DNA of 64,000 nt, taken from sequence record NC_028957.1, one strand, 5' to 3'. A program made the translations under genes and the position numbers. Each line of letters opens with the position of its first letter. The first letter of the stretch is position 1. The notes beneath the pieces are model-generated. The model was not told where the DNA came from, made no database searches, and was given only the letters and a program-made list of their open reading frames with translations. This document shows, piece after piece, positions 2,044 to 17,779 of this stretch. This DNA comes from Escherichia phage vB_EcoM_VR26.

Positions 2044-2844
2044 AAGCATAAGGCTCCTATAAACGATTATAGAGCACGCAACCTTTAAGTAAGGTGTTTA
2101 TACATAACACGGATAAAATCGTCCCAGAATCGTTCTGGTGTGTGATTTGAGGCTACTATGATAGTAAGTGATAAACAACTCGTTAATGTAACAAACAGAA
2201 ATGTGACAAATTTGCGTGAGCAAGGTTATGACGTTTTAATCGGAACAAAACATTTGGTGAAAATCGAGCATTTAGGTAAGCGAACTAAAATCGATTGCAA
2301 ATGTGATAAATGTGGTGATGAATACACTGTCACCCAAGATAAAATAAACGAAATCAATATCCAATTCTGCAAAAGCCATAGATGGGAAATTTATTCGGAT
2401 TTGCGTAAAGAATTTTGGAACACACCGGATGGACTAAAAATTCGAAAATCTAAAGGTGCAAAAATCTCCAAAGCCAAAAAGGGTATTCCTTGTATAAATA
2501 CACGCGGGGAATTAAATGGACGATATAATCCGAGATTACGAGAATTTAAACGGTATGCATATGCAGTTCGACAATTCACCGCGTTAAATTTTAAATCTGA
2601 AGTCGAAAATCTCCCAAATTTTGAAAAGACCGGGCGGGCTGGAATTGACGGTGCATATCAGTTAGACCACAAGGTTTCCATTAAATATGGATTTGAAAAT
2701 AATATAGACCCCTCAATCATTGGACATATTTTAAATCTTGAAATGATTCCGTGGGAATTGAATCGAGCAAAGGATATAAATAATAGTATATCAATTCTCG
2801 ATTTACAAAAATATATAGAAAATTATCATAGGAAACAATAACTT
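2044..2844 (+). mobile_element. Putative freestanding homing endonuclease insertion between genes 18 and 19
   Basis: Genes 18 and 19 are adjacent in T4; here a 684-bp HNH-like ORF sits between the late promoter and gene 19. Confidence 0.45.
2158..2841 (+). CDS. HNH-family (Mob-like) homing endonuclease, putative
   Basis: 227 aa; Cys cluster CKCDKCGDEY...CKSH (zinc-finger-like) and HNN-type motif QLDHKVSIKYGFENN...NLEMIPWELNRAK; ATG with GAGG Shine-Dalgarno. Confidence 0.6.
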   Translation: MIVSDKQLVNVTNRNVTNLREQGYDVLIGTKHLVKIEHLGKRTKIDCKCDKCGDEYTVTQDKINEINIQFCKSHRWEIYSDLRKEFWNTPDGLKIRKSKGAKISKAKKGIPCINTRGELNGRYNPRLREFKRYAYAVRQFTALNFKSEVENLPNFEKTGRAGIDGAYQLDHKVSIKYGFENNIDPSIIGHILNLEMIPWELNRAKDINNSISILDLQKYIENYHRKQ

Positions 2845-3336
2845 ATGGAACTTACAGATATCACCAGAGCCTTCGAGTCGGGTGACTTTGCTCGCCCTAA
2901 CCTGTTCGAAGTCGAAATCCCATTCCTGGGTAAAAACTTTGCTTTCCATTGTAAAGCAGCCCCGATGCCAGCAGGCATTGTAGAAAAAGTACCAGTTGGT
3001 TACATGAACCGTAAAATCAACGTTGCGGGAGACCGTACATTTGATGACTGGACTATTACGATTTATAACGACGATGCTCATAAAGTTCGTCAAGCAATTG
3101 TTGATTGGCAAAATATGTGTCACGGTATGACCAACGAAATTACCGGTGCAGCTCCTGCTGATTATAAGAAAACCGCTACTGTTCGCCAGTTCCATCGTGA
3201 TGGCAAGACCGTTACTAAAGAAGTTGTTATCACCGGCATGTGGCCAACTAACGTTGGGGAAGTCCAGATGGATTGGGACAGTAATAATGAGATTGAGACA
3301 TTTGAAACAACGTTTGCAATTGACTGGTGGGAATAA
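2845..3336 (+). CDS. 19: Tail tube protein gp19
   Basis: 163 aa, same length and near-identical to remembered T4 gp19 (MELTDITRAFESGDFARPNLFEV...). Confidence 0.95.
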   Translation: MELTDITRAFESGDFARPNLFEVEIPFLGKNFAFHCKAAPMPAGIVEKVPVGYMNRKINVAGDRTFDDWTITIYNDDAHKVRQAIVDWQNMCHGMTNEITGAAPADYKKTATVRQFHRDGKTVTKEVVITGMWPTNVGEVQMDWDSNNEIETFETTFAIDWWE

Positions 3337-3337
3337 G

Positions 3338-3345
3338 TATAAATA
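3338..3345 (+). promoter_or_regulatory. T4-type late promoter TATAAATA for gene 20
   Basis: Exact TATAAATA directly after gp19 stop. Confidence 0.65.
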
Positions 3346-3353
3346 AAGTTATT

Positions 3354-3371
3354 ATGAGGCTTCGGCCTCAT
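3354..3371 (+). other. Stable stem-loop with UUCG tetraloop in gene 20 leader
   Basis: ATGAGGC-ttcg-GCCTCAT perfect 7-bp stem, not followed by a U-run; likely mRNA 5-prime stabiliser. Confidence 0.5.
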
Positions 3372-3393
3372 TTCCCAAACTTCGGAGACTCTA

Positions 3394-4968
3394 ATGGCAG
3401 GTTTTAATACAATACTAAATTTTCTTAAGCCTTGGGCTAAAGAAGATGAACAAGAATATAAGCAACAAGAAAAAAATAATTTAGAGTCAATGACCGGGCC
3501 GAAGTTTGATGATGGGGCTCGCGAAATTGAGTCACAAGAACAAAACGTCCCGTATAATGCATTGATGCAACAGATGTTCGGGAGCAACGAACCGGAAGTA
3601 AAAAACACCAGGGAATTAATTGACACATACCGCAACCTACTAAATAATTATGAAGTTGATAACGCGGTTCAAGAGATTGTGTCTGATGCCATCGTATTTG
3701 AAGACGGCAAAGATGTTGTAGCTCTTAACCTTGATGCTACCGAATTTAGTCAGAAAATTAAAGACCGAATTCTTGAAGAATTCTCGGAAGTTAATAACCT
3801 CCTTAATTTCGAGCGTAAAGGTTCTGACCACTTTAAACGTTGGTATGTGGATTCTCGAATTTTCTTCCACAAAATTATCAACCCTTCAAAACTTAAAGAA
3901 GGCGTTCAAGAACTTCGTCGCCTTGACCCAAGACAAATCCAGTTCATCCGCGAAATCGTTACACGCATGGAAAATGGTACGAAAATTGTTGACGGTTACA
4001 GAGAATATTTTGTATACGATACAGGTCATGAAAGTTATTGTGCCGATGGTCGTATATATGAAGCGGGTACTAAAATAAAAATTCCTCGTGCGGCAATTGT
4101 ATATGCGCATTCCGGATTACTTGATTGCTGCGGTAAGAATATCATTGGATACCTGCAACGAGCAATCAAACCTGCAAACCAATTAAAACTATTAGAAGAT
4201 GCTTTAGTCATTTATCGTATAACTCGTGCTCCAGACCGCCGAGTCTTTTATATCGATACTGGGAATATGCCGTCTCGTAAAGCAGCAGCACATATGCAAC
4301 ATATTATGAACACGATGAAAAACCGTGTCGTATATGATGCAACTACGGGTAAAATCAAAAACCAACAGCACAATATGTCAATGACAGAAGACTATTGGTT
4401 GCAACGTCGTGACGGTAAAGCAGTCACCGAAGTTGATACTCTCCCAGGTGCACAAGGCATGTCGGATATGGACGATGTTCGCTGGTTTAAGAACAACCTA
4501 TATCAGGCTCTCAGAATTCCATTATCTCGTATCCCTAATGACCAGAACAGCGGCGTTATGTTTGATGCGGGGGCGACAATTACTCGCGATGAATTGAATT
4601 TCTCTAAATGGATTAGACAACTACAGAATAAATTTGAAGAAGTTTTCCTCGACCCGCTTAAAACCAACCTTATCCTGAAAAAAGTTATTTCAGAAGAGGA
4701 ATGGGACAAGGAACTAAATAATATTAAAGTTACGTTCAACCGTGATAGCTATTTCACCGAAATGAAAGATGCAGAAATCATGGAACGCAGAATCAATATG
4801 CTAACGATGGCTGAACCGTTTATCGGTAAATATATTTCGCATCAAACGGCTATGAAGGATTTCCTCCAGATGTCTGATGAAGAAATTAATCAAGAAGCTA
4901 AGCAAATTGAATTGGAGTCCAAAGAGGCTCGTTTCCAAAACCCTGAAGAAGAAGAAGAGGATTTCTAA
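3394..4968 (+). CDS. 20: Portal vertex protein gp20
   Basis: 524 aa (same as T4 gp20); GGAG Shine-Dalgarno; conserved gene order. Confidence 0.95.
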
Positions 4969-5231
4969 TGGATGATTTATTTGAAGCCATTAAATCAAAC
5001 GACCTCGTAGCCGTTCGCAAATATTTTGCTGAAAACATTGGCCCAGTATGCGGTAGTTTGATTCAAGAACGTAAGATTGAAATTGCACGTTCCATCATGA
5101 TTGAAGGCGAAGAGCCTAAAGAAGATGATGAAGACGATAAAGATACCAAGGACGAGAAGAAAGATAAAAAAGATTCTGACGATGCCGATGAAGGCGACGA
5201 TGATGATGAAGACGATGAGGACGACGAATAA
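4968..5231 (+). CDS. 67: Prohead core protein gp67 (acidic C-terminus)
   Basis: 87 aa with poly-Asp/Glu tail; TAATG overlap with gene 20; T4 synteny. Confidence 0.8.
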
Positions 5232-5659
5232 TGCTTATTCTCCCTGAAGGTTACGAATTAACTCTTGAAAATATCGAAAGTATTTCAGAAGCAGCTCAGG
5301 GACAATTTGACTCATTATCCGAAGCCTTAGAAACGGACGATATAAATATTATTGTAGAAAACATGTTTGCCAACGGTGAGATTGAAAAAGCAATCGTTAT
5401 CGGTGCCCTGAATGAAGATATTCAGCTTGACGAATTTATCGTTAAACATGTATCGTCCCGCGGTGAATTAACCCGCACAAAAGACCGTGCTACTCGTAGC
5501 CGTAACGCTTTCCAGACAACCGGTCTTTCTAAAGCAAAACGTCGTCAAATTGCCCGTAAAGCTACTAAAACCAAACGTGCAAACCCATCAACGCAAATCA
5601 GAGCAGAGCGCAAGCGCAAAAAAGCTCGAGCTAAGCGTAAAGCATTCGGACTGAATTAA
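5231..5659 (+). CDS. 68: Prohead core protein gp68
   Basis: 142 aa (T4 gp68 about 141 aa); basic C-terminus; translationally coupled. Confidence 0.75.
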
Positions 5660-6297
5660 TGGAACAGAAACCAGAGTTACTAATCGAACACTGGGGTCAA
5701 CCGGGCGAAATTAAAGATGGTGTACCGATGCTGGAATCACATGATGGTTCTGGCAGCGGTTTAAAACCAGGGCTTTATATTGAAGGGATTTTCCTACAAG
5801 CTGAAGTTGTCAACCGTAATAAACGACTTTATCCTAAACATATTTTGGAAAAAGCCGTTGCGGATTATATCGCCGAACAGGTTGAAACCAAGCAGTCACT
5901 TGGAGAATTAAACCATCCGCCCCGTGCGAACGTCGACCCTATGCAAGCCGCAATTATTATTGAAGAAATGTGGTGGAAAGGAAATGATGTATATGGACGT
6001 GCACGAATTATTGAAGGCGACCATGGCCCAGGTGATAAACTTGCCGCAAATATAAGAGCAGGTTGGATTCCGGGTGTATCTAGTCGTGGACTTGGTTCCT
6101 TGACTAAATCAGCCAAAGGTTATAGTATCGTCAACGAAGGTTTTAAATTGACGGTTGGAGTGGATGCAGTATGGGGGCCGAGTGCTCCGGACGCTTGGGT
6201 CAAACCGAAGCAGATTACAGAATCACAAACGGCAGTTGCCGATACCAGTGCCGATGACGCCTTTATGGCTCTCGCAGAGGCTTTAAAGACGTTATAA
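5659..6297 (+). CDS. 21: Prohead core scaffold protease gp21
   Basis: 212 aa, same as T4 gp21; synteny 68-21-22-23. Confidence 0.92.
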   Translation: MEQKPELLIEHWGQPGEIKDGVPMLESHDGSGSGLKPGLYIEGIFLQAEVVNRNKRLYPKHILEKAVADYIAEQVETKQSLGELNHPPRANVDPMQAAIIIEEMWWKGNDVYGRARIIEGDHGPGDKLAANIRAGWIPGVSSRGLGSLTKSAKGYSIVNEGFKLTVGVDAVWGPSAPDAWVKPKQITESQTAVADTSADDAFMALAEALKTL

Positions 6298-6300
6298 ATA
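6293..6300 (+). promoter_or_regulatory. T4-type late promoter TATAAATA for gene 22
   Basis: Exact TATAAATA overlapping gp21 stop, 30 nt before gene 22 ATG. Confidence 0.65.
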
Positions 6301-6329
6301 AATGTATATCTTAACAACAGGACTACAAA

Positions 6330-7148
6330 ATGCTTAAAGAACAACTCATCGCCGAAGCTCAGACCATCGATGCTTCCGTTGCTCTTGATAGTATTTTCGA
6401 ATCAGTTAATTTGTCCCCGGAAGCGAAAGCTACCTTCGGCACTGTATTCGAAGCTACCGTCAAGCAACACGCCGTTAAACTGGCAGAAATGCACATTCAG
6501 AAAATTGCTGAAAAAGCAGAAGAAGAAGTAGAAAAGAATAAAGAAGAATCTGACGAAAAAGCAGAGAAAAAACTGAAAGAATCCGCAGCTAAATTCCTTG
6601 ACCACGTTGCTAAAGAGTGGCTGGCAGAAAATAAACTGGCTGTTGACCGTGGTATTAAAGCTGACCTGTTCGAATCCATGTTTACTGGCATGAAAGAACT
6701 GTTTGTTGAGCACAACGTTGTTGTTCCAGAAGACTCTGTTGATGTTGTTGCAGAAATGCAGGAAGAACTGGAAGAGCAAAAAGCTGAAACCGCTAGTCTG
6801 TTCGAAGAAGTTTCTAAGCGTGATGCTTATATCAATTATGTCCAGCGCGAAGTTGCGTTGACTGAAGCGACCAAAGACCTGACCGAATCTCAGAAAGAAA
6901 AAGTTGGTTCTCTGGTAGAAGGTATGGATTATTCCGATGCGTTCGGTACCAAAATTGGCGCTATCGTTGAAATGGTTAAAGGTCAGGTAGACACCGCCGA
7001 AAAACCTATCACCGAAGCAGCTATAAATAATTCTGTAGACGATGCTGCGGCACTGAATTACATCTCAGAAGCAGTTGAAGAAAAAGGCGCCAAGCCTACC
7101 CTGTCCTTCGCGGACTTGTCTGCTCTCGCAGCATCACGAATTTCTTAA
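6330..7148 (+). CDS. 22: Prohead scaffold protein gp22
   Basis: 272 aa, Glu/Lys-rich coiled-coil-like; T4 synteny. Confidence 0.9.
   Translation: MLKEQLIAEAQTIDASVALDSIFESVNLSPEAKATFGTVFEATVKQHAVKLAEMHIQKIAEKAEEEVEKNKEESDEKAEKKLKESAAKFLDHVAKEWLAENKLAVDRGIKADLFESMFTGMKELFVEHNVVVPEDSVDVVAEMQEELEEQKAETASLFEEVSKRDAYINYVQREVALTEATKDLTESQKEKVGSLVEGMDYSDAFGTKIGAIVEMVKGQVDTAEKPITEAAINNSVDDAAALNYISEAVEEKGAKPTLSFADLSALAASRIS
7022..7029 (+). promoter_or_regulatory. Candidate late promoter TATAAATA inside gene 22 3-prime end (for gene 23)
   Basis: Exact TATAAATA about 140 nt upstream of gene 23 ATG; no other canonical motif nearer. Confidence 0.4.
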
Positions 7149-7169
7149 TTTAATAAGGTTATACAACAC

Positions 7170-8729
7170 ATGAAAAAGAATGCATTAGTTCAAAAATGGT
7201 CCGCTCTGCTGGAAAACGAAGCTCTTCCTGAAATCGTTGGTGCTTCTAAACAAGCTATCATCGCTAAAATCTTTGAAAACCAGGAACAAGATATCCTGAC
7301 CGCTCCTGAATACCGTGACGAAAAAATCTCCGAAGCATTTGGTTCTTTCCTGACTGAAGCTGAAATCGGTGGTGACCATGGTTATGATGCTACCAATATC
7401 GCGGCTGGCCAGACCTCTGGTGCAGTAACTCAGATTGGGCCGGCAGTTATGGGTATGGTTCGTCGTGCTATCCCACATCTGATTGCGTTTGATATTTGTG
7501 GCGTACAGCCTCTGAACAACCCGACTGGCCAGGTATTTGCCCTGCGTGCAGTTTACGGTAAAGACCCTGTAGCTGCTGGTGCTAAAGAAGCTTTCCACCC
7601 GATGTATGCTCCGAACGCTATGTTCTCCGGTCAGGGCGCTGCTGAAGCTTTCGAAGCTCTGGCTGCAAGCAAAGTTCTTACCGTTGGTAAAATTTATTCT
7701 CACTTCTTCGAAGCAACCGGTTCCGCACACTACCAGGCTGTTGAAGCTGTAACCGTTGATGCCGCCGCTACTGATGCTGCTAAACTTGACGCTGAAGTTA
7801 CCAAACTGCTCGAAGCTGGTAAGCTGGCAGAAATCGCTGAAGGTATGGCTACCTCTATCGCCGAACTGCAGGAAGGTTTCAACGGTTCTCAGGATAACCC
7901 GTGGAACGAAATGGGCTTCCGCATCGATAAACAAGTTATCGAAGCTAAATCCCGTCAGCTGAAAGCAAGCTACTCTATCGAACTGGCACAGGACCTGCGC
8001 GCTGTTCACGGTATGGATGCTGATGCCGAATTGAGTGGTATTCTGGCTACTGAAATTATGCTGGAAATCAACCGCGAAGTTATCGATTGGATTAACTACT
8101 CCGCACAGGTTGGTAAATCTGGTATGACCAACACCGTTGGCGCTAAAGCTGGTGTGTTTGACTTCCAGGACCCAATTGATATCCGTGGCGCTCGTTGGGC
8201 TGGTGAAAGCTTCAAAGCTTTACTGTTCCAGATTGATAAAGAAGCCGCTGAAATCGCTCGTCAGACCGGTCGTGGTGCAGGTAACTTCATCATCGCTTCC
8301 CGTAACGTAGTTAACGTACTGGCTGCAGTTGATACCTCCGTATCTTATGCTGCTCAGGGTCTGGGTAAAGGTTTCAACGTTGACACCACTAAAGCTGTGT
8401 TCGCTGGTGTTCTGGGTGGCAAATACCGTGTCTATATCGACCAGTATGCTCGCGCAGATTACTTCACCATCGGTTACAAAGGCGCTAACGAAATGGATGC
8501 TGGTATCTACTACGCACCATATGTTGCACTGACCCCGCTGCGTGGCTCTGACCCGAAAAACTTCCAGCCAGTTATGGGCTTCAAAACCCGTTACGGTATC
8601 GGTATTAACCCGTTCGCTGACCCGGCAGCTCAGGCTCCGACCAAGCGTATTCAAAACGGCATGCCGGACATCGTTAACAGCCTCGGCTTGAACGGTTACT
8701 TCCGCCGCGTATATGTTAAAGGAATTTAA
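7170..8729 (+). CDS. 23: Major capsid protein gp23
   Basis: 519 aa (T4 gp23 521 aa); strong similarity to remembered gp23. Confidence 0.97.
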   Translation: MKKNALVQKWSALLENEALPEIVGASKQAIIAKIFENQEQDILTAPEYRDEKISEAFGSFLTEAEIGGDHGYDATNIAAGQTSGAVTQIGPAVMGMVRRAIPHLIAFDICGVQPLNNPTGQVFALRAVYGKDPVAAGAKEAFHPMYAPNAMFSGQGAAEAFEALAASKVLTVGKIYSHFFEATGSAHYQAVEAVTVDAAATDAAKLDAEVTKLLEAGKLAEIAEGMATSIAELQEGFNGSQDNPWNEMGFRIDKQVIEAKSRQLKASYSIELAQDLRAVHGMDADAELSGILATEIMLEINREVIDWINYSAQVGKSGMTNTVGAKAGVFDFQDPIDIRGARWAGESFKALLFQIDKEAAEIARQTGRGAGNFIIASRNVVNVLAAVDTSVSYAAQGLGKGFNVDTTKAVFAGVLGGKYRVYIDQYARADYFTIGYKGANEMDAGIYYAPYVALTPLRGSDPKNFQPVMGFKTRYGIGINPFADPAAQAPTKRIQNGMPDIVNSLGLNGYFRRVYVKGI

Positions 8730-8751
8730 TCTTAGATTAAGTTAAATAAAA

Positions 8752-8778
8752 AGGGACCCTTGAGGTCCCTTTCTTGTT
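8752..8778 (+). terminator. Rho-independent terminator after gene 23
   Basis: AGGGACC-loop-GGTCCCT hairpin followed by TTCTTGTTTT. Confidence 0.7.
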
Positions 8779-8779
8779 T

Positions 8780-9073
8780 TCATACCATACCATTTAAATG
8801 AACTTCTACCCGGCGCTTGATGAGGTCTCTGAAATTAACACTGTTCTCTTGAAGTTTCAACCAGTTACCCGATTTGTCTCTGGTGTGAGTAGAATAATTA
8901 CCATTCCACCAAAAATCAGTGTCATATGCTAAGTTTTCATATTTTTTAACTAGTTTGTTCAGAGCATTACCATTAACACCATTTGGGTATTTGTTGACCA
9001 ATGCAACAACTTCAATTTCCAGATTTTTAAAGGTATTCCGAAGGAAAGATACTTTGTTCATTTTAGACTCCAT
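8780..9073 (-). CDS. Hypothetical protein (occupies segD position of T4)
   Basis: 97-aa ORF antisense between genes 23 and 24, with its own early-type promoter upstream; no recognisable motif. Confidence 0.5.
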   Translation of the reverse strand: MESKMNKVSFLRNTFKNLEIEVVALVNKYPNGVNGNALNKLVKKYENLAYDTDFWWNGNYSTHTRDKSGNWLKLQENSVNFRDLIKRRVEVHLNGMV

Positions 9074-9097
9074 TGTTTGGTAACTCAGTATGAAATC

Positions 9098-9127
9098 ATT
9101 ATGTCTTATCTTAATCGGGTTGTAAAC
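9098..9127 (-). promoter_or_regulatory. T4 early-type promoter (GTTTAC-N18-CATAAT)
   Basis: -35 GTTTAC and -10 CATAAT on minus strand upstream of 8780..9073; conserved downstream box also at about 35000 and 52000. Confidence 0.55.
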
Positions 9128-9133
9128 AACTTT

Positions 9134-9141
9134 TATAAATA
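9134..9141 (+). promoter_or_regulatory. T4-type late promoter TATAAATA for gene 24
   Basis: Exact TATAAATA 27 nt before gene 24 ATG. Confidence 0.65.
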
Positions 9142-9167
9142 AAGTATATCACAAAAGGAAAGCGCAA

Positions 9168-10448
9168 ATGGCAAAGATTAACAAATTACTGCGCGAGTCA
9201 ACTACCACTACCAGCAACTCCTTGGGCCGCCCGAATCTTGTTGCTTTGACCCGTGCTACAACCAAATTGATTTACCGCGATATTATCGCTGAACAACGTA
9301 CTAACCAGCCAGTTGCTGCGCTGTACGGTGTTAAATATCTTACTCCTGATAATGAATTCAGTTTCCAGACTGGTGCTACTTATGGTGGTGAAGTTGGTTC
9401 TAAAGACCGTGAAACAATTCCGGAATTTACAACCCCAACTCAGGCCGTAGCTAAAGGTGGATACATTAAATTCCAGAATATCGTTTATAAAGCTCTGGTT
9501 GATAATCCATTTGCATCGACCACAGAAACAGTGTTATCTGATGTTCTGCAAGAAGGTCTTGTTGCATTAACTATTCGTTTAGTTCCTGATGCTGCACACA
9601 CCGAAAAATTTGAAGCTGGTGATGTTGAAATTAGTAACGCCGTGTTCCAGGTTAATAAATGGAATGCTCCTGTTAAATCCCGTAAATTGAAAACTGCATT
9701 AACTGTTGAGCTTGCTCAGGATATGGAAGCAAATGGCTTTAATGCTCCTGCATTCCTGGAAGACCTGCTTGCTACTATTATGGCAGATGAAATTAACAAA
9801 GATGTTCTTCAGTCTCTTATTACCGTTTCCAAGCGTTATAAAGTAACTGGCGTTTCTGACAATGGCACCATCGATTTAACATATGATGCAGCTCCAGAAG
9901 GTGCACGTAAACTGTACGAACTGGTTTGTGAAATGAACTCTGAAATTCAGAAAACTACATCTTACTCTGGTACATTCGTTGTTGCCTCAAGTCGTGTGGC
10001 TGCGATGCTCGCCGGTTCCGGTTGGTTGAAACATAAACCTGAAGATGAACAATGGCTCCCGGAAACCGCGTATGGTTATTTGATTAATGGTCTTCCTGTA
10101 TTCTGTGATGTTAACAGCCCATTGGATTATGTGACTGTTGGTGTTAAAGAGAATTATGGTGGTAACGAGGTCGTGGGCTCAATTTTCTATGCTCCTTATA
10201 CAGAAGGCCTGGACTTAGATGATGAAGAGCATGTAGGCGCGTTTAAGGTCATTGTGGACCCAGACAGCTTGCAGCCATCTATCTCCCTGATGGTTCGATA
10301 TGCACTTTCAGCTAACCCTTACACCGTTGCTAAAGACGACAAAGAAGCTCGTATTATCGATGCAACTAATATGGATTTAATGGCTGGCCAGAGCAACATG
10401 TCTTATCTGCTCGGTGTTAAACTTCCACCAATCATTTATGAGGCGTAA
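9168..10448 (+). CDS. 24: Head vertex protein gp24 (copy 1)
   Basis: 426 aa; N-terminus MAKINKLLRESTTT..., close to remembered T4 gp24 (427 aa). Confidence 0.93.
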   Translation: MAKINKLLRESTTTTSNSLGRPNLVALTRATTKLIYRDIIAEQRTNQPVAALYGVKYLTPDNEFSFQTGATYGGEVGSKDRETIPEFTTPTQAVAKGGYIKFQNIVYKALVDNPFASTTETVLSDVLQEGLVALTIRLVPDAAHTEKFEAGDVEISNAVFQVNKWNAPVKSRKLKTALTVELAQDMEANGFNAPAFLEDLLATIMADEINKDVLQSLITVSKRYKVTGVSDNGTIDLTYDAAPEGARKLYELVCEMNSEIQKTTSYSGTFVVASSRVAAMLAGSGWLKHKPEDEQWLPETAYGYLINGLPVFCDVNSPLDYVTVGVKENYGGNEVVGSIFYAPYTEGLDLDDEEHVGAFKVIVDPDSLQPSISLMVRYALSANPYTVAKDDKEARIIDATNMDLMAGQSNMSYLLGVKLPPIIYEA

Positions 10449-11732
10449 ATGCAAAAGATTAACGCACTAATTCACGAATCAACATTAACGGCGGCCAACC
10501 AGGTCGCCCGTCCTAATTTGCTTTCTTATACTCGAGCTACGAATAAACGAATTTTTAAAGCTCTCGTGGCCGAACAGAAAACTACTCAGCCAGTTGCAGC
10601 GCTGTATGGCGTTCGTGTTCTGAACCCAGATGATAAAATGACTTATCTTGGTGGAGCAACGTTTGCCGGTCAAATTGGTATGTTCGAGCGTAAGAATATT
10701 CCAGAATTTACGAACAAAGACGAAGCTTATGCAGTCGGCGATATGTTCCAGTTTGAAAGCATTGTATTCAAAGCTTTGGAAGCTTCTCCTTTTGCCGGGA
10801 CCCTCGAAACTGATTTGGGTGAAGTTATTTCTGAAGCCATTGCGGCTGGCCATATAAGAATGATGTCAGATGCGGCTTTCACTGATAAATTTGAACAAGG
10901 ACATCCTGAAATTGCTGAAGCCGGTTTCCGTATCGATAAATGGCAGACTGAAGTTAAATCCAGAAAACTGAAAACCTCTTTAACCGTTGAGCTTGCGCAA
11001 GACCTGGAAGCAAATGGTTTCGACGCAACAGATTTTATTGATAATATCCTTGGCATTCAAATGGCAGAGGAAATTAATAAGGACGTACTGCAATCTTTAA
11101 TTACCGTAAGTTCACGTTTTAAAGTCCAGGGTGTTTCCGAAAAAGGTGTACTTAATCTTACTGATGCCGCTTATGATAATGCTCAGGACCGTGCTCGAAC
11201 TCTGTATTATTATATGTGCGAAATGAATTCCGCAGTTCAACGTCAGACTTCGTTCGCTGGTACATATGCAGTCGCTTCTTCCCGTTGTGCAGCTATTTTA
11301 GCCGCTTCTGGCTGGGTTGAGAAAAAGGAAGACCAAGATGAATTGGCCTATGGTGTTCTGAAGAACGGTTTGCCACTTTATGCAGATATGAATAGCCCGT
11401 GCGATTATGTTATTGTTGGTGTAAATGCTGATATGGGTGAAGGCCAGACGGTCGCATCTTTGTATTATGCGCCTTATACGGAAGGTCTTAGTGAAGTTGA
11501 TGATGAGGGTGACACCTCGGTTGGGGAATTCAAGGTTATTGTTGACCCTGAAAGTTTACAGCCTACAGTTGCATTGTTAGCTCGTTATGCACTGACTGCG
11601 AACCCTTATACCGTTGCTAAAGACGATAAAGAAGCTCGCATTATTGATGGGGCTGATATGGATAAGATGGCTAACCAAAGTCAATTGAGTTCTTATCTTG
11701 GTGTTAAACTTCCACCACTGGAAAAAGAATAA
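10449..11732 (+). CDS. Head vertex protein gp24 paralog (copy 2)
   Basis: 427 aa, collinear similarity to copy 1 along whole length (shared KSRKLKT.LTVELAQD.EANGF, INKDVLQSLITVS, NPYTVAKDDKEARIID); directly abutting copy 1. Confidence 0.9.
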   Translation: MQKINALIHESTLTAANQVARPNLLSYTRATNKRIFKALVAEQKTTQPVAALYGVRVLNPDDKMTYLGGATFAGQIGMFERKNIPEFTNKDEAYAVGDMFQFESIVFKALEASPFAGTLETDLGEVISEAIAAGHIRMMSDAAFTDKFEQGHPEIAEAGFRIDKWQTEVKSRKLKTSLTVELAQDLEANGFDATDFIDNILGIQMAEEINKDVLQSLITVSSRFKVQGVSEKGVLNLTDAAYDNAQDRARTLYYYMCEMNSAVQRQTSFAGTYAVASSRCAAILAASGWVEKKEDQDELAYGVLKNGLPLYADMNSPCDYVIVGVNADMGEGQTVASLYYAPYTEGLSEVDDEGDTSVGEFKVIVDPESLQPTVALLARYALTANPYTVAKDDKEARIIDGADMDKMANQSQLSSYLGVKLPPLEKE

Positions 11733-12757: not shown

Positions 12758-12854
12758 AATCTCTCACTTTTGATGTTATAAATATCATTATAAATTATAC
12801 CCTCTATACTTTCTTTCTCTGAAAGGAATTAATCGTATCGGAAGGTCTAGAACC

Positions 12855-12886: not shown

Positions 12887-13150
12887 TCAGAATTTTACAT
12901 ACAGCATTGGTTTGTTATCTTGCCAGTCATAATTCCAGGTAAATGATGTAAATTTTTCTGCCCGCAGAAAATCAGATATCTTTGTGCGGTTTCCCTCTTC
13001 ATACTCTTTTTCAGAAACTGCCATATTAACAGCATCTTTGCCATTCTCAGCAGCGGCAATAGCCACTTTGCGAAATATAACAATAAAGTCATTTGCAACT
13101 TTATCTTGTGATTCTTTAGCCATTTGACGTAGTTCTTCTGCGAATGTCAT
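12887..13150 (-). CDS. Hypothetical protein (24.2 position)
   Basis: 87-aa ORF, ATG start, coupled to upstream ORF by ATGA overlap. Confidence 0.5.
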   Translation of the reverse strand: MTFAEELRQMAKESQDKVANDFIVIFRKVAIAAAENGKDAVNMAVSEKEYEEGNRTKISDFLRAEKFTSFTWNYDWQDNKPMLYVKF

Positions 13151-13350
13151 TTCTTCACCTTTTTGTTAAACAACCGCTTGCGGTATACGATTTTCTCTCG
13201 TGACTTGAACTTTTCTTTAGCTTGTTCAACATCAACCCATGCCTTTGCCATTTCTTTAGCGGTCCCGCCTAATACCTTGGCGATTTCAATAAATGTCATA
13301 CCAGTTTCATGCAGGAAATGTACTTTAACCTTATTCATAACCATTCTCAT
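13147..13350 (-). CDS. Hypothetical small basic protein, possible helix-turn-helix (24.3 position)
   Basis: 67-aa ORF, ATG start; basic C-terminus. Confidence 0.5.
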   Translation of the reverse strand: MRMVMNKVKVHFLHETGMTFIEIAKVLGGTAKEMAKAWVDVEQAKEKFKSREKIVYRKRLFNKKVKK

Positions 13351-13487
13351 GTTGAGTTAGTGAAGCTATCTTAACATGGAATTTTTAACTTGTAAACAGG
13401 AGTTTTATGCCAGATATTCTTGAACGTAAAGATTTACTTTACAACCGTCACTACCTTAATAAATATTAAATTAATAACGGAGGATTT

Positions 13488-15014
13488 ATGACACAAACTA
13501 CAGGTGAAAAAGAAGGCGTATTTTACGGTTATTCTCTTTATGATTTGAATAAAGAAAAACTAATAACTTTTGATGAATTACTTACGGGTATTCAAGGAGA
13601 GCCCGGAGAAAATGGCGATATTGGACCAAAAGGCCCTATTGGTTTAACAGGTCCTCAAGGACCGAAAGGTGATATCGGGTCAAAAGGTATTAAAGGTGAT
13701 ACAGGTCCTCAAGGTATTCAAGGGCCCGCTGGCCCACAAGGTCCTCAGGGAGAAAAGGGAGTCCAAGGTTTAGCTGGAGTCCAAGGCATTCAAGGACCAG
13801 TCGGCCACCAAGGAGTGAAAGGTGATACCGGCCCTCAAGGTATTCAAGGACCGAAAGGTGATACAGGAGCACAAGGCCCACAAGGTGACAAAGGCGAAAT
13901 GGGTCCGGTGGGTCCGGCTGGTCTAACATGGAAAGGAACATGGGACGCTGATGTAGAGTATTCTATAAATGAGGCTGTCGGATATGGTGGTTCTTTATAT
14001 TTCGCCAAAACAAAAGTTCCTAATGGCGAAATACCAACACCGACTTCTAACTATTGGGGTGTTTTGGCTACCGAGGGTCCACAAGGTCCACAAGGTCAAC
14101 AAGGTCTTAAAGGTGATACCGGTCCTCAAGGTATTCAAGGACCTGTAGGGCCTGTAGGGCCGCAGGGTATTCAGGGACCAAGAGGACTTCAAGGGTCAGA
14201 AGGTGAAATAGGACCGCGGGGTATTCAAGGGCTAAAAGGCGAAACTGGGCCCGCTGGTCCACAGGGTATTCAAGGGCTAAAAGGCGAGGTGGGTGCTCAG
14301 GGTCCTTCTGGTTCTCCTGGACTTACAGGACCAGAAGGACCTCGTGGGTTAACAGGCGAAGCTGGAGCTCAAGGACCTCGTGGTGCTATAGGTCCTATCG
14401 GTTTAACAGGTCCTATCGGTTTAACGGGTCCTCAAGGTATTCAAGGTCCGAAAGGTGATACAGGTCCTCAAGGCTTACAAGGTCCTCAAGGCTTACGAGG
14501 TATTCAAGGAGCTCCTGGAGTAAAAGGAGAAGCGGGTGCACAAGGTCCGAAAGGTGATACAGGAGCACAAGGTCCTATTGGTTTAACTGGACCTAAAGGT
14601 GATACAGGCCCGAGCCCTTATACTGTTTATAATTATTCTAATGTTGCAACTGGTTATGCTGAAATGGTTATGCCTGGTGTGTCATCAAACACAGTATTTA
14701 GACTTCGTTCAGTTGGAACTAATATAGAATATAGTGTTCTAAGTAAAGGCGGAGCTAATAGATATGTAGATTGGCACTTTTCAATTCCAAGTGTTTCCGG
14801 CAATACAGTAAGTACTAATAGCGGAACTAATACATTAACTCCTACAGGTAATTTTACTATTGTGGCGACCGCTTATAATGGACTAAGGGGATTTACAATA
14901 ACATTATGCGAGTGGGGTTCAAGAGCTATTGTTGATATCACTGTTTATCATCATGGGCGTTCGGGAGACACAACCAAAGCTGTGGCTATTCGTATGACTA
15001 CTACAAAATACTAA
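13488..15014 (+). CDS. Collagen-like triple-helix repeat protein with carbohydrate-binding-like insert and C-terminal globular domain
   Basis: 508 aa; two Gly-X-Y tracts (37 and 60 triplets) separated by a W.GTW....Y..N..V.Y.GS.Y insert resembling CBM5/12-type motifs; about 130-aa non-repetitive C-terminal domain; GGAGG Shine-Dalgarno. Confidence 0.85.
   Translation: MTQTTGEKEGVFYGYSLYDLNKEKLITFDELLTGIQGEPGENGDIGPKGPIGLTGPQGPKGDIGSKGIKGDTGPQGIQGPAGPQGPQGEKGVQGLAGVQGIQGPVGHQGVKGDTGPQGIQGPKGDTGAQGPQGDKGEMGPVGPAGLTWKGTWDADVEYSINEAVGYGGSLYFAKTKVPNGEIPTPTSNYWGVLATEGPQGPQGQQGLKGDTGPQGIQGPVGPVGPQGIQGPRGLQGSEGEIGPRGIQGLKGETGPAGPQGIQGLKGEVGAQGPSGSPGLTGPEGPRGLTGEAGAQGPRGAIGPIGLTGPIGLTGPQGIQGPKGDTGPQGLQGPQGLRGIQGAPGVKGEAGAQGPKGDTGAQGPIGLTGPKGDTGPSPYTVYNYSNVATGYAEMVMPGVSSNTVFRLRSVGTNIEYSVLSKGGANRYVDWHFSIPSVSGNTVSTNSGTNTLTPTGNFTIVATAYNGLRGFTITLCEWGSRAIVDITVYHHGRSGDTTKAVAIRMTTTKY
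13596..13928 (+). repeat. Collagen Gly-X-Y coding triplet array 1 (37 triplets)
   Basis: Uninterrupted GXY repeats with recurring GPQGIQG/GDTGPQG units. Confidence 0.9.
14076..14615 (+). repeat. Collagen Gly-X-Y coding triplet array 2 (60 triplets, includes tandem GPIGLTGPIGLTGP)
   Basis: Uninterrupted GXY repeats; direct DNA repeat ggtcctatcggtttaac x2 near 14390. Confidence 0.9.
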
Positions 15015-15023
15015 GGAGCTTTA

Positions 15024-15887
15024 ATGGAACCGGTTAAAGCTGTGTTAGAGCCTGATGTAATAGATGTGGAATATGGTAATACATACTCGGCTACTGTAAC
15101 TCTGTCTCCTATAGAAAATATTCCAGATGGTTCCGTGATAAGATATGATTGGGTTGTTAATAACAAGTTCGTTGGTACGGGTGAAGCTACTCGTACCACC
15201 CAACCATCTCAGACCGGAAATTATGTATTATCATGTAGAGTATTCATTACTCCGCCTAATGAAAATACTGTAATGGTAACAACTAATAAATCATATGGGT
15301 ATGTATATAAAAATTCCGATACAAGTCCAGTAGATGCAGAAATATTATATGATAACAAGATATACCAAGTAGGAAGCAAAGTTAGATTATTAGCCGTTGC
15401 CAATAACCCAGATACCAACTTTGTTAAAGGTATTATATGGAAGGATGCTGATGGTAAGATAATAGGTATAGGTCGGGAATATATCCATACAATGCAATCA
15501 GAGTATGATATAGTTCGAGCTAAAGTTACAATGGATTCGCCTATAAGAGATGAATTTAGTAAGAACTTTACTATACATTTGTACGCTATAAATGTTCAAG
15601 AAGGAACATGTATAAGATATATTCATCCTTTAGACCACAGGGATGCAGGATTTATCTGGTGTGGTTGGTGGGTTATGGATGAAATCCAACGAGCGATAAA
15701 ACTTGGGCTGGATTGGAAAAATCCAAAAGAGCTAGATTTAAATTACAAGTGTGATTTAGAGACATTAGCGTTATTGCTCAAGACATATCCTGAAGCCGAA
15801 GTTCAAGAATCAAGACACGGATATATAATAACCAGACTACAAATTGAGACTGGCGGAATATATGAAAAACCATATGAAGTAAAATAA
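15024..15887 (+). CDS. Hoc-like decoration protein paralog (Ig-like N-terminal region plus Hoc-type capsid-binding C-terminal domain)
   Basis: 287 aa; C-terminal HPLDHRDAGFIWCGWWVMDEIQ...YPEAEVQESRHGYII matches Hoc C-terminus (YVHPLP...YIWCGWWVMD...YPEVDVQESRNG); AGGAG Shine-Dalgarno; 9 nt after collagen-like gene. Confidence 0.8.
   Translation: MEPVKAVLEPDVIDVEYGNTYSATVTLSPIENIPDGSVIRYDWVVNNKFVGTGEATRTTQPSQTGNYVLSCRVFITPPNENTVMVTTNKSYGYVYKNSDTSPVDAEILYDNKIYQVGSKVRLLAVANNPDTNFVKGIIWKDADGKIIGIGREYIHTMQSEYDIVRAKVTMDSPIRDEFSKNFTIHLYAINVQEGTCIRYIHPLDHRDAGFIWCGWWVMDEIQRAIKLGLDWKNPKELDLNYKCDLETLALLLKTYPEAEVQESRHGYIITRLQIETGGIYEKPYEVK
15657..15679 (+). repeat. 23-bp perfect inverted repeat, arm 1 (TGGTGTGGTTGGTGGGTTATGGA, encodes WCGWWVMD)
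   Basis: Exact reverse complement present at about 16112..16134 inside hoc. Confidence 0.85.
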
Positions 15888-15910
15888 AAAGGGCCGCAAG
15901 GCCCTTTTAT
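15888..15910. terminator. Bidirectional terminator between Hoc-like paralog and hoc
   Basis: GGGCC-gcaa-GGCCC hairpin flanked by A-run and T-run. Confidence 0.7.
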
Positions 15911-15912
15911 CA

Positions 15913-17044: not shown

Positions 17045-17725
17045 TTAATTTAAACGAATAAAAGATGAGTTACGTGTTTCACGAATAAGAATGGAACCGT
17101 CACGATTGATATAGTAAATCAAACTAAACAATGTTTGGTGTGCGCTTGCATGAGTAAAAGAAGTAGGGCGTTCTTTCCAGTCTGGGGTCTCTTTAATCCA
17201 CTGGTAAATCCACCAAGGGAGAGTACAATATCCAGGAGCTTTGCCCAGCATAAGCAGATTGGGGCTAAAATTTTTAGGCAGTGTAAATTTAGGAGTTTCA
17301 GCTTCGATGATTTGAGCGACAGCTTCTTCAAAGTCTTCGGAAACAAACGGCACTTCAATTTCAACGAGTTTAACTTCTGATTCAGGGACAACTTCCTGGG
17401 TAACTTCGACTACTTCAACGGGTGCTTCTGGAGCATCAAACAAAAGAACAGCTTCAGGTTTAGCTGATTCTTCACCTTCAAACTTACTACCTGATAATTC
17501 ATCATCGGCATTAATAAGGTCGGTGATGCTTAAGCCTTCGTTATCGTCCGGCATAGGCATGTCAGCAAATGCTTTAAGTCCTGCTTCCAGGTCAATCAAC
17601 ATATTATCGAAAGTTTTTGTTTTCTTAACATCAACACCAAGCGATGATGCATATTCAGCTAATTTTTCTTTGGCTTCTTTTTTCTCGAGGATACGAATTT
17701 CCTCAATATAGTTCTTGTCAATCAT
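17045..17725 (-). CDS. inh: Inh-like protein (inhibitor of prohead protease) with Hoc-related C-terminal domain
   Basis: 226 aa (T4 Inh 226 aa); position between hoc and uvsW; C-terminal LPWWIYQWIKETPDWK resembles the Hoc WCGWWVMD...DWK region. Confidence 0.7.
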   Translation of the reverse strand: MIDKNYIEEIRILEKKEAKEKLAEYASSLGVDVKKTKTFDNMLIDLEAGLKAFADMPMPDDNEGLSITDLINADDELSGSKFEGEESAKPEAVLLFDAPEAPVEVVEVTQEVVPESEVKLVEIEVPFVSEDFEEAVAQIIEAETPKFTLPKNFSPNLLMLGKAPGYCTLPWWIYQWIKETPDWKERPTSFTHASAHQTLFSLIYYINRDGSILIRETRNSSFIRLN

Positions 17726-17751: not shown

Positions 17752-17779
17752 TAGATATATTTATTACCTTGGAATCATC

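Follow-up and report, generated by a model that had tools for sequence, protein, structure and literature searches.

A collagen-like fibre gene paired with a second hoc gene in Escherichia phage vB_EcoM_VR26 and other T4-like phages: a possible two-component head fibre

The 64,000 nucleotides (nt) of Escherichia phage vB_EcoM_VR26 analysed here (NC_028957.1; referred to throughout as the window) belong to a T4-like genome of the Gaprivervirus type, the closest records of which are VR25 and VR7. Beside its canonical hoc gene the window carries a cassette of two genes, one encoding a collagen-like fibre protein of 508 amino acids (aa) and the other a 287-aa paralogue of Hoc, termed Hoc2. This pair was found in about 26 T4-like phages from at least six genera, and the conserved module of fibre and Hoc2, as a possible two-component head fibre, appears to be undescribed. 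Hoc is the best-studied phage decoration protein for display and mucus adherence, and its biological role is still debated. A tentative reading of the pair, judged to fall a little short of an even chance, is that Hoc2 anchors the collagen-like fibre on the capsid, the two genes forming a late, dispensable module of the virion surface. The more specific proposal, held with somewhat greater reserve, is that a Hoc paralogue has turned into a dedicated capsid adaptor for a separate collagen and CBM (carbohydrate-binding module) fibre of ~90 nm with an exchangeable tip.

Distribution and conservation of the gene pair

The sequence of the cassette is already public: the pair, annotated since 2009-2010 in VR7, VR25, VR5, JS10, Aeromonas phage 65 and others, can be read in the records of these phages as well as in those of ESCO10, KIT01, CLB_P2, Kosakonia phage 305 (Kos305), Salmonella phage CGG4-1 and Erwinia phage Cronus. 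In VR7, gp196 is labelled 'collagen triple helix repeat domain protein' and gp197 'similar to T4 Hoc', and in phage 65 'hoc-2, second copy of the hoc gene' stands beside a protein 'similar to collagen-like proteins' (p147); the two genes are named gp248/gp247 in VR25 and 0176/0177 in JS10. The pairs of VR25, VR7, JS10 and phage 65 are the same cassette as that of the window, which shares 96.9% DNA identity with VR25 across the whole 2.56 kb. A preliminary description of the window, made from its letters alone, had reported two plus-strand open reading frames (ORFs) opposite to hoc, one for a collagen-like fibre protein and the other for a Hoc paralogue with the capsid-binding domain, and had treated them as accessory. 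Each of these points held, the accessory status through comparison of T4-like genomes, in which the cassette is not present in VR20, SP18 and many other relatives.

Seven of the pairs, including that of the window, were classed as type A, with a 33-aa fibre N-terminus. The remaining 19, classed as type B and represented by JS10, CGG4-1, phage 65 and Cronus, combine a 75-aa fibre N-domain with a distinct Hoc2; judged by eye, the first ~30 aa of the type B N-domain look like the type A motif. Together the pairs span the Tevenvirinae and Emmerichvirinae, with hosts in Escherichia, Salmonella, Kosakonia, Erwinia, Pantoea and Aeromonas. For type B, tblastn with the immunoglobulin-like (Ig) region of Hoc2 recovered 19 phages and with the fibre N-domain 20 phages, 18 of which were common to both searches. 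In these 18 phages the fibre N-terminus lies 0.7-1.9 kb upstream of Hoc2 on the same strand, and direct adjacency is confirmed by annotation in JS10, CLB_P2, CGG4-1, phage 65 and Cronus. A scan of IMG/VR with the fibre N-domain returned four known isolates and nothing else.

Every T4-like phage found with the fibre also has Hoc2. The distance from fibre stop to Hoc2 start is between -4 and +29 nt in nine of the ten phages examined, and all fibres examined keep the same plan of N-domain, collagen, CBM-type node, collagen and tip. The pair is not always linked, however, as IME08 keeps both genes at separate places, the fibre gene just after gene 24b (2694-4103 of its locus) and Hoc2 at the 24.3/hoc site. 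The N-terminal domain of the IME08 fibre is a separate 68-codon ORF that terminates immediately ahead of the collagen part, which makes the gene either split or a pseudogene. Decay of the cassette was seen in PspYZU05, where a 49-aa fibre remnant lies beside a 132-aa ORF that consists of the Hoc C-domain only, and in AP1, which has a fibre remnant and no Hoc2. In Kos305 it is the canonical hoc that is reduced to a 3' remnant (5259-5622 of its locus, reverse strand, ...LEAGTIYSYVY*), leaving Hoc2 as the sole intact Hoc-domain gene in the locus. The Dhakavirus KIT01 carries a type A pair of the Gaprivervirus kind at 81% DNA identity, which suggests that the cassette moves as a unit. Recombination within it is indicated as well, since the common 5' region of the VR7 and window cassettes is nearly identical at the DNA level, pointing to a recent exchange. 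As a separate observation, the CGG4-1 locus (4883-8566) contains three Hoc-domain genes, encoding Hoc2 (285 aa), Hoc (944 aa) and a further ORF product of about 270 aa.

The collagen-like fibre protein

The fibre protein matches Pfam Collagen (PF01391) at E 2e-47, which places its repeats far beyond chance, and PHROG 5073 ('tail fiber protein') at E 2e-151. Its Gly-X-Y triplets form two unbroken tracts, of 38 triplets (aa 34-147) and 60 triplets (aa 197-376), in the X and Y positions of which Pro and charged residues each account for 21%. The preliminary description had both tracts but counted 97 triplets where there are 98. At 0.286 nm per residue, two triple helices of considerable length would be expected (Table 1). 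The second tract is the one that varies between close relatives: VR25 has 66 triplets there, six more than the window, so that two genes that are 97% identical differ by 18 aa in repeat number. The tracts are preceded by an N-terminal motif that is common to the type A fibres of VR7, VR25, KIT01 and Kos305 and to that of the Vequintavirinae phage A5-4, and that presumably forms the attachment end.

The 49-aa insert between the tracts (aa 148-196) had been likened in the preliminary description to CBM5/12-type carbohydrate-binding motifs. This assignment stands at the level of the family profile only, because the insert alone has no Pfam match; separate Pfam scans of the insert, the N-terminus and the C-terminal domain at E <= 10 all returned no match. 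Modules related to the insert form a widespread family distributed within collagen-like proteins, many of which have more than one, and homologous modules of relatives score 27-39.5 bits against Pfam CBM_5_12 (PF02839), the gathering cut-off of which is 26.2. A profile of 46 modules that includes the insert of the window matches the chitin-binding domain of chitinase A1 from B. circulans (1ed7) from end to end with E 2.8e-7, as well as further CBM5/12 domains and a small number of phage or pyocin fibres of solved structure. The conserved Trp and Tyr positions of CBM5/12 modules are present in the insert.

The last 132 aa, predicted to be globular in the preliminary description, were modelled by AlphaFold2 (AF2) as a ten-strand beta-sandwich with a predicted local distance difference test (pLDDT) score of 92.3 and a predicted template modelling (pTM) score of 0.85, consistent with that prediction. 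No specific solved relative was found, and the domain does not have the C1q/TNF jelly-roll fold of the BclA type. The fold recurs at the fibre C-termini of JS10, Kos305 and Aeromonas phage 65.2 and in siphovirus collagen-like proteins, even at 14-17% identity. By sequence the tip is rare, with 19 representative clusters among 1.84 billion proteins. The domain alone gave no match as query in a word-indexed protein search; the full-length fibre gave 7111 hits, mostly collagen proteins, from which nine homologues of the C-terminal domain were drawn. Tips that are 51-56% identical to that of the window occur on fibres of JS10, of Rogunavirus siphoviruses (e4/1c, AugustePiccard and RobRod40) and of the Vequintavirinae phages A5-4 and A7_1, and VR7 and KIT01 carry different tips on the same fibre N-terminus. 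From this comparison of sequences, the tip is a mobile domain. By analogy of fold and family, the insert and the tip may both bind glycans.

The second Hoc protein

Hoc2 consists of two Ig-like domains (about aa 1-190) followed by a Hoc capsid-binding domain (about aa 195-283), the counterpart of residues 281-376 of T4 Hoc. A phmmer search against the Protein Data Bank aligned it with residues 121-376 of T4 Hoc (5vf3_Z), up to the end of the chain, at E 3e-26, and it matches PHROG 1149 (Hoc-like) at E 1e-57 and a local hidden Markov model (HMM) of the Hoc C-domain at E 3e-41. Its C-terminal 105 aa are 44% identical to the resident Hoc. The AF2 model (pLDDT 86) shows two Ig-like beta-sandwiches and an alpha/beta C-domain, and a Foldseek search with this model returned tandem-Ig receptors at E 1e-6.

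The residues through which T4 Hoc contacts the capsid are Tyr293, His295, Arg300, Trp309/310, Asp313 and the Glu355-Gly359 ESRNG loop, and a single Hoc C-domain touches all six subunits of a hexamer (Fokine et al., 2023; PMC10385173). In alignments, the counterparts in Hoc2 are Y199, H201, R206, W215/W216, D219 and Q261-E-S-R-H-G266; the sole change in a contact residue is Asn358 to His, and the Hoc2 of VR7 keeps the Asn. Retention of these residues suggests that Hoc2 binds the centres of gp23 hexamers through its Hoc-type C-terminal domain. Since one Hoc C-domain contacts all six hexamer subunits, Hoc2 and Hoc would have to compete for identical positions on the capsid.

A possible two-component head fibre

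In the model proposed here, Hoc2 would sit at the centre of major-capsid-protein hexamers in competition with the resident Hoc, and the conserved N-terminus of the fibre would dock on Ig1 of Hoc2, the Ig domain that is distal and conserved to an unusual degree. The fibre itself is envisaged as a trimer about 85-90 nm long, composed in order of a short N-terminal attachment motif, a triple helix of 33 nm, a three-module CBM5/12-like knot, a triple helix of 51 nm and a variable beta-sandwich tip. Such long adhesive capsid fibres might bind the surface polysaccharide of the host or of the surroundings. The preliminary description had already suggested that the Hoc-like protein might hold a trimeric glycan-binding fibre on the capsid, a reading that comparison between phages supports in part and indirectly.

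The observations that bear most directly on cooperation between the two proteins are evolutionary. Between genera, mean identity is 45% for Ig1 of Hoc2, 45% for the capsid-binding domain of Hoc2 and 45% for the fibre N-domain, and 27% for the fibre tip, whereas the Ig domains of canonical Hoc from the same phages are 17-27% identical. Conservation of Ig1 is what would be expected if this domain contacts a conserved virion partner and not a variable environmental ligand. Together with the order and spacing kept over deep divergence, the transfer of the cassette as a unit and the joint decay of both genes in PspYZU05 and AP1, this suggests that fibre and Hoc2 work together; the retention of both genes in IME08 though they are unlinked there, and of Hoc2 in Kos305 after the loss of hoc, also speaks for joint function. 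Precedents exist in gp12 of phage SPP1, a collagen-like trimer at hexamer centres, and in PG7, where the Hoc capsid-binding domain serves to display other modules.

Several observations weigh against it. In the literature searched, neither proteomic or microscopic studies of virions nor binding measurements were found for the cassette proteins. Because one Hoc C-domain spans the hexamer, a trimeric fibre would have to be held by a single Hoc2 monomer, an awkward 3:1 stoichiometry. The A5-4 fibre, which has the N-terminal motif of the window and a 55%-identical tip, comes from a phage in which no Hoc C-domain was found in the 50-kb structural region, and its neighbours gp225 and gp227, checked as Hoc-like adaptors, yielded no Hoc domain. 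In Rogunavirus e4/1c a homologous fibre has a different N-domain, and no Hoc was found. The case is further weakened by VR7 and the window, whose fibre N-termini are identical despite Hoc2 proteins that are only 39% identical, and the adjacency of the two genes could reflect common descent of linked genes and not contact. Short second Hoc proteins occur in Muldoon and PG7 as well (PMC10385173).

If the two proteins do not act together, the likeliest way to account for them, itself considered somewhat unlikely, is that they are independent accessory virion proteins, Hoc2 being a shorter alternative Hoc on some hexamers and the fibre a side, neck or tail fibre whose N-terminus attaches it elsewhere, with nothing but linkage between them. 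The PHROG and RefSeq label 'tail fiber protein' agrees with this, although the label derives from similarity of collagen repeats and not from experiment. Also in line with it are the presence of the N-terminal motif in A5-4, where the major head protein and the neck genes flank the region of the fibre gene and a neighbouring gene encodes a collagen protein with a Fibritin_C region, the matches of the insert profile to the solved tail-fibre chains 8ke9 and to an F2-pyocin fibre, and the separation of the two genes in IME08. However, linkage alone poorly explains a pair that is kept from coliphages to phage 65 at 27-47% identity with its order and tight spacing intact, and it leaves the joint decay and the atypical conservation of Hoc2 Ig1 without an explanation. 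Further, in all T4-like genomes the fibre gene is located within the head-gene block (24, hoc, inh) or next to it, and never in the tail-fibre cluster.

That the collagen-like trimer binds the capsid directly, with Hoc2 as an unrelated second decoration or as a competitor regulating occupancy, is improbable, even though a precedent exists in gp12 of phage SPP1, a collagen-like trimer that binds reversibly at hexamer centres. The gene for the Rogunavirus e4/1c fibre, whose tip is 51% identical, directly precedes that for the major head protein in the absence of Hoc, and the head operons of Cronus and IME08 have the fibre gene after gene 24. Nonetheless, the hexamer centre of T4-type capsids is where Hoc binds, and a single Hoc C-domain covers it completely (PMC10385173); the constant presence of Hoc2 would go unexplained. 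The N-domain of the Rogunavirus protein, at 100 aa, is also a different one, which means that this protein is anchored in another way than the fibre of the window. Very improbable, finally, is a cassette that has no function and is carried as cargo, or one that acts elsewhere than in the virion, such as through a secreted or cell-associated protein. The cassette is dispensable, as the relatives without it demonstrate, and remnants persist in some phages; against this, neither ORF is interrupted, and both have been conserved across deep divergence under constraint that differs by domain. Hoc2 also keeps the residues by which Hoc contacts the capsid, and late-promoter-like motifs and good ribosome-binding sites are present.

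Should Hoc2 indeed anchor the fibre, T4-like phages of enterobacteria, Erwinia and Aeromonas would possess a conserved two-component 'head fibre' system. The heads of some T4-like phages would bristle with long adhesins, and two kinds of decoration would share the site at the hexamer centre, which would give a reason why some phages retain two hoc genes. The T4-type capsid surface would then be a modular adhesion platform, with bearing on host finding and on persistence on mucosal or plant surfaces, and the pair would offer a natural non-covalent display scaffold. Were the proteins instead independent, they would amount to an ordinary accessory fibre and an ordinary second Hoc. VR7, VR25, JS10 and phage 65 have already been isolated and sequenced, making the module readily testable.

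Comparison with known systems

Like T4 Hoc, Hoc2 has Ig-like domains before a C-terminal capsid-binding domain with the published contacts, and its gene lies beside hoc and inh. It differs in having two Ig domains where Hoc has three, in being a second copy encoded on the opposite strand, in the Asn358 to His change, in an Ig1 that is conserved across genera while the Ig domains of Hoc are hypervariable, and in being always accompanied by the fibre gene. Second, shorter Hoc proteins are known from Serratia phage Muldoon (314 aa) and Enterobacter phage PG7 and have been read as functionalisation of the capsid surface; PG7 reuses the Hoc capsid-binding domain to display other modules (Fokine et al., 2023; PMC10385173). 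The extra Hoc-domain protein in one genome is a feature that Muldoon and PG7 share with the window. In PG7, however, the additional function is covalently fused, whereas the window would use a separate polypeptide. Neither collagen nor a partner fibre gene is mentioned in that study, in which the word 'collagen' has no occurrence (PMC10385173). In the library searched, no paper connects a fibre of the collagen-like kind with a Hoc paralogue, and none deals with the cassette.

Two further systems resemble the fibre itself. As it is described, SPP1 gp12 is likewise a dispensable, trimeric, collagen-like auxiliary protein on capsid hexamers. It is a protein of about 6.6 kDa with a short collagen motif. 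This tiny protein binds the capsid by itself, whereas the protein of the window has 508 aa, 98 triplets, a CBM-type node and a tip, and adjoins a Hoc paralogue. The gene for gp12 lies between those for the scaffold and the major capsid protein, while the fibre gene of the window lies beside hoc and that of the Rogunavirus homologue just upstream of the major head protein. The second system is that of the EPclB-type fibres of E. coli O157 prophages, which appear as three-bead dumbbells by rotary shadowing (Ghosh et al., 2012; PMC3368898). These share with the fibre of the window the arrangement of a collagen tract, a small globular repeat, a second collagen tract and a C-terminal trimerisation or tip domain (PMC3368898). 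The fibre of the window, however, is without the PfN, Pf2 and PfC domains of EPclB, has a node of the CBM5/12 type in place of Phage_fiber_2, and is encoded in a head-gene and not a tail context. Phage_tail_N (PF08400), Phage_fiber_2 (PF03406) and Phage_fiber_C (PF06820) were detected neither in the whole fibre protein nor in its three non-collagen segments.

Gene layout, insertion site and expression signals

The features of the cassette and its surroundings are collected in Table 1.

Table 1. Features of the fibre-Hoc2 cassette and its flanks, in positions of the window
Feature	Position	Strand	Basis or remark
Canonical T4-type late promoter motif TATAAATA	12777..12784	+	Between rnlB start and 24.2 end
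24.3 (DUF2774)	13147-13350	-	Left neighbour of cassette
20-codon ORF MPDILERKDLLYNRHYLNKY	13408..13470	+	Across left insertion junction; read from sequence
One-mismatch late-promoter variant AATAAATA	13458..13465	+	22 nt upstream of fibre ATG
Shine-Dalgarno GGAGG of fibre gene	13479..13483	+	Read from sequence
Collagen-like fibre gene, 508 aa	13488..15014	+	ORF; Pfam Collagen and PHROG 5073 matches
N-terminal motif (aa 1-33) GEKEGVFYGYSLYDLNKEKLITFDELLTG, presumed attachment end	13488..13586	+	Common to relatives
Collagen tract 1, 38 unbroken triplets, about 33 nm if triple-helical	13587..13928	+	Counted
CBM5/12-type node, 49 aa (aa 148-196), WKGTWDADVEYSINEAVGYGGSLYF..., between tracts	13929..14075	+	Family profile
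Collagen tract 2, 60 unbroken triplets, about 51 nm if triple-helical	14076..14615	+	Counted
C-terminal beta-sandwich, 132 aa, presumed distal ligand-binding tip	14616..15011	+	AF2 model
Shine-Dalgarno GGAG, inside 9-nt fibre-Hoc2 spacer	15015..15018	+	Read from sequence
Hoc2 gene, 287 aa, Hoc paralogue	15024..15887	+	ORF; T4 Hoc and PHROG 1149 matches
GC-rich hairpin AAAAGGGCCGCAAGGCCCTTTT between convergent Hoc2 and hoc genes	15887..15908		Read from sequence
Canonical hoc, 367 aa	15913..17016	-	Context; convergent with Hoc2 gene

VR20 represents the empty site, in which 24.3 abuts hoc, and comparison with it bounds the insertion at ~13415 on the left and at the hairpin on the right. A similar hairpin is present at the equivalent position of VR20; that of the window is probably a bidirectional terminator common to Hoc2 and hoc. 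The 20-codon ORF at the left junction was rejected as a gene, because its ATGCCAG start already exists in the empty site of VR20 and the segment is deleted in KIT01; it is probably a by-product. The fibre and Hoc2 ORFs are in one frame, parted by TAA GGA GCT TTA before the ATG (15012-15026), and likewise in VR25. A read-through fusion of fibre and Hoc2 was considered and discarded, as the common frame is not found in VR7, KIT01, JS10 and Kos305, and it is taken as chance for that reason. The GC content of 0.47-0.52 across 13.5-14.7 kb, compared with about 0.38, might be taken as a mark of foreign origin, but the Gly and Pro codons account for the rise.

The preliminary description had noted that a variant, and no canonical TATAAATA, lies directly upstream of the fibre gene, and this was found to be correct, the variant being AATAAATA. 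Four copies of AATAAATA are present in the window on both strands, including one at 32 nt upstream of the start of the head gene inh (17758-17765, minus strand). At the equivalent spot Kos305 has CATAAATA, and no late-promoter motif was found within 120 nt upstream of the fibre gene in JS10 and KIT01. Farther upstream, on the strand opposite to rnlB and 24.2, the canonical TATAAATA at 12777 is followed by TATAAATT (12777-12796). This motif is kept in VR7, VR25, VR20 and Kos305 and reads AATAAATA in KIT01. It is a possible distal promoter for the cassette, pointing through the antisense of 24.2 and 24.3; its conservation in VR20, which is without the cassette, indicates that it is not cassette-specific. 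On these sequence signals, late expression of the cassette is likely. Independently of the cassette, transcription from the motif at 12777 would produce a predicted late antisense RNA over 24.2 and 24.3.

Additional observations

Elsewhere in the window, tandem paralogues of gp24, the capsid vertex protein, are encoded at 9168-10448 and 10449-11732 (plus strand), as annotated in VR7, JS10 and IME08. A resemblance to the Hoc capsid-binding domain was also seen in Inh (17045-17725, minus strand), the C-terminal ~60 aa of which (LPWWIYQWIKETPDWK...LIRETRNSSF) recall the WCGWWVMD.IQ...DWK...VQESRNG pattern of that domain. Among 2153 six-frame fragments, the local Hoc C-domain HMM scored Inh of PspYZU05 at 16.8 bits and those of JS10, CLB_P2, KIT01 and IME08 at about 14 bits, and in a shuffle control the best of 2000 reached 11.7 and 7.0 bits. 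Comparison of Inh with Hoc by BLASTP and hhalign was not significant, and a capsid-binding module shared by Inh and Hoc is offered as a lead. A5-4 further encodes, at 7003-10794 of its locus, a 1263-aa protein in which many short collagen tracts alternate with globular repeats of ~60 aa and which includes a Fibritin_C-like region. The gene for this protein is flanked by the major head protein on one side and the neck genes on the other, and is one gene upstream of that for the A5-4 fibre homologous to the window fibre.

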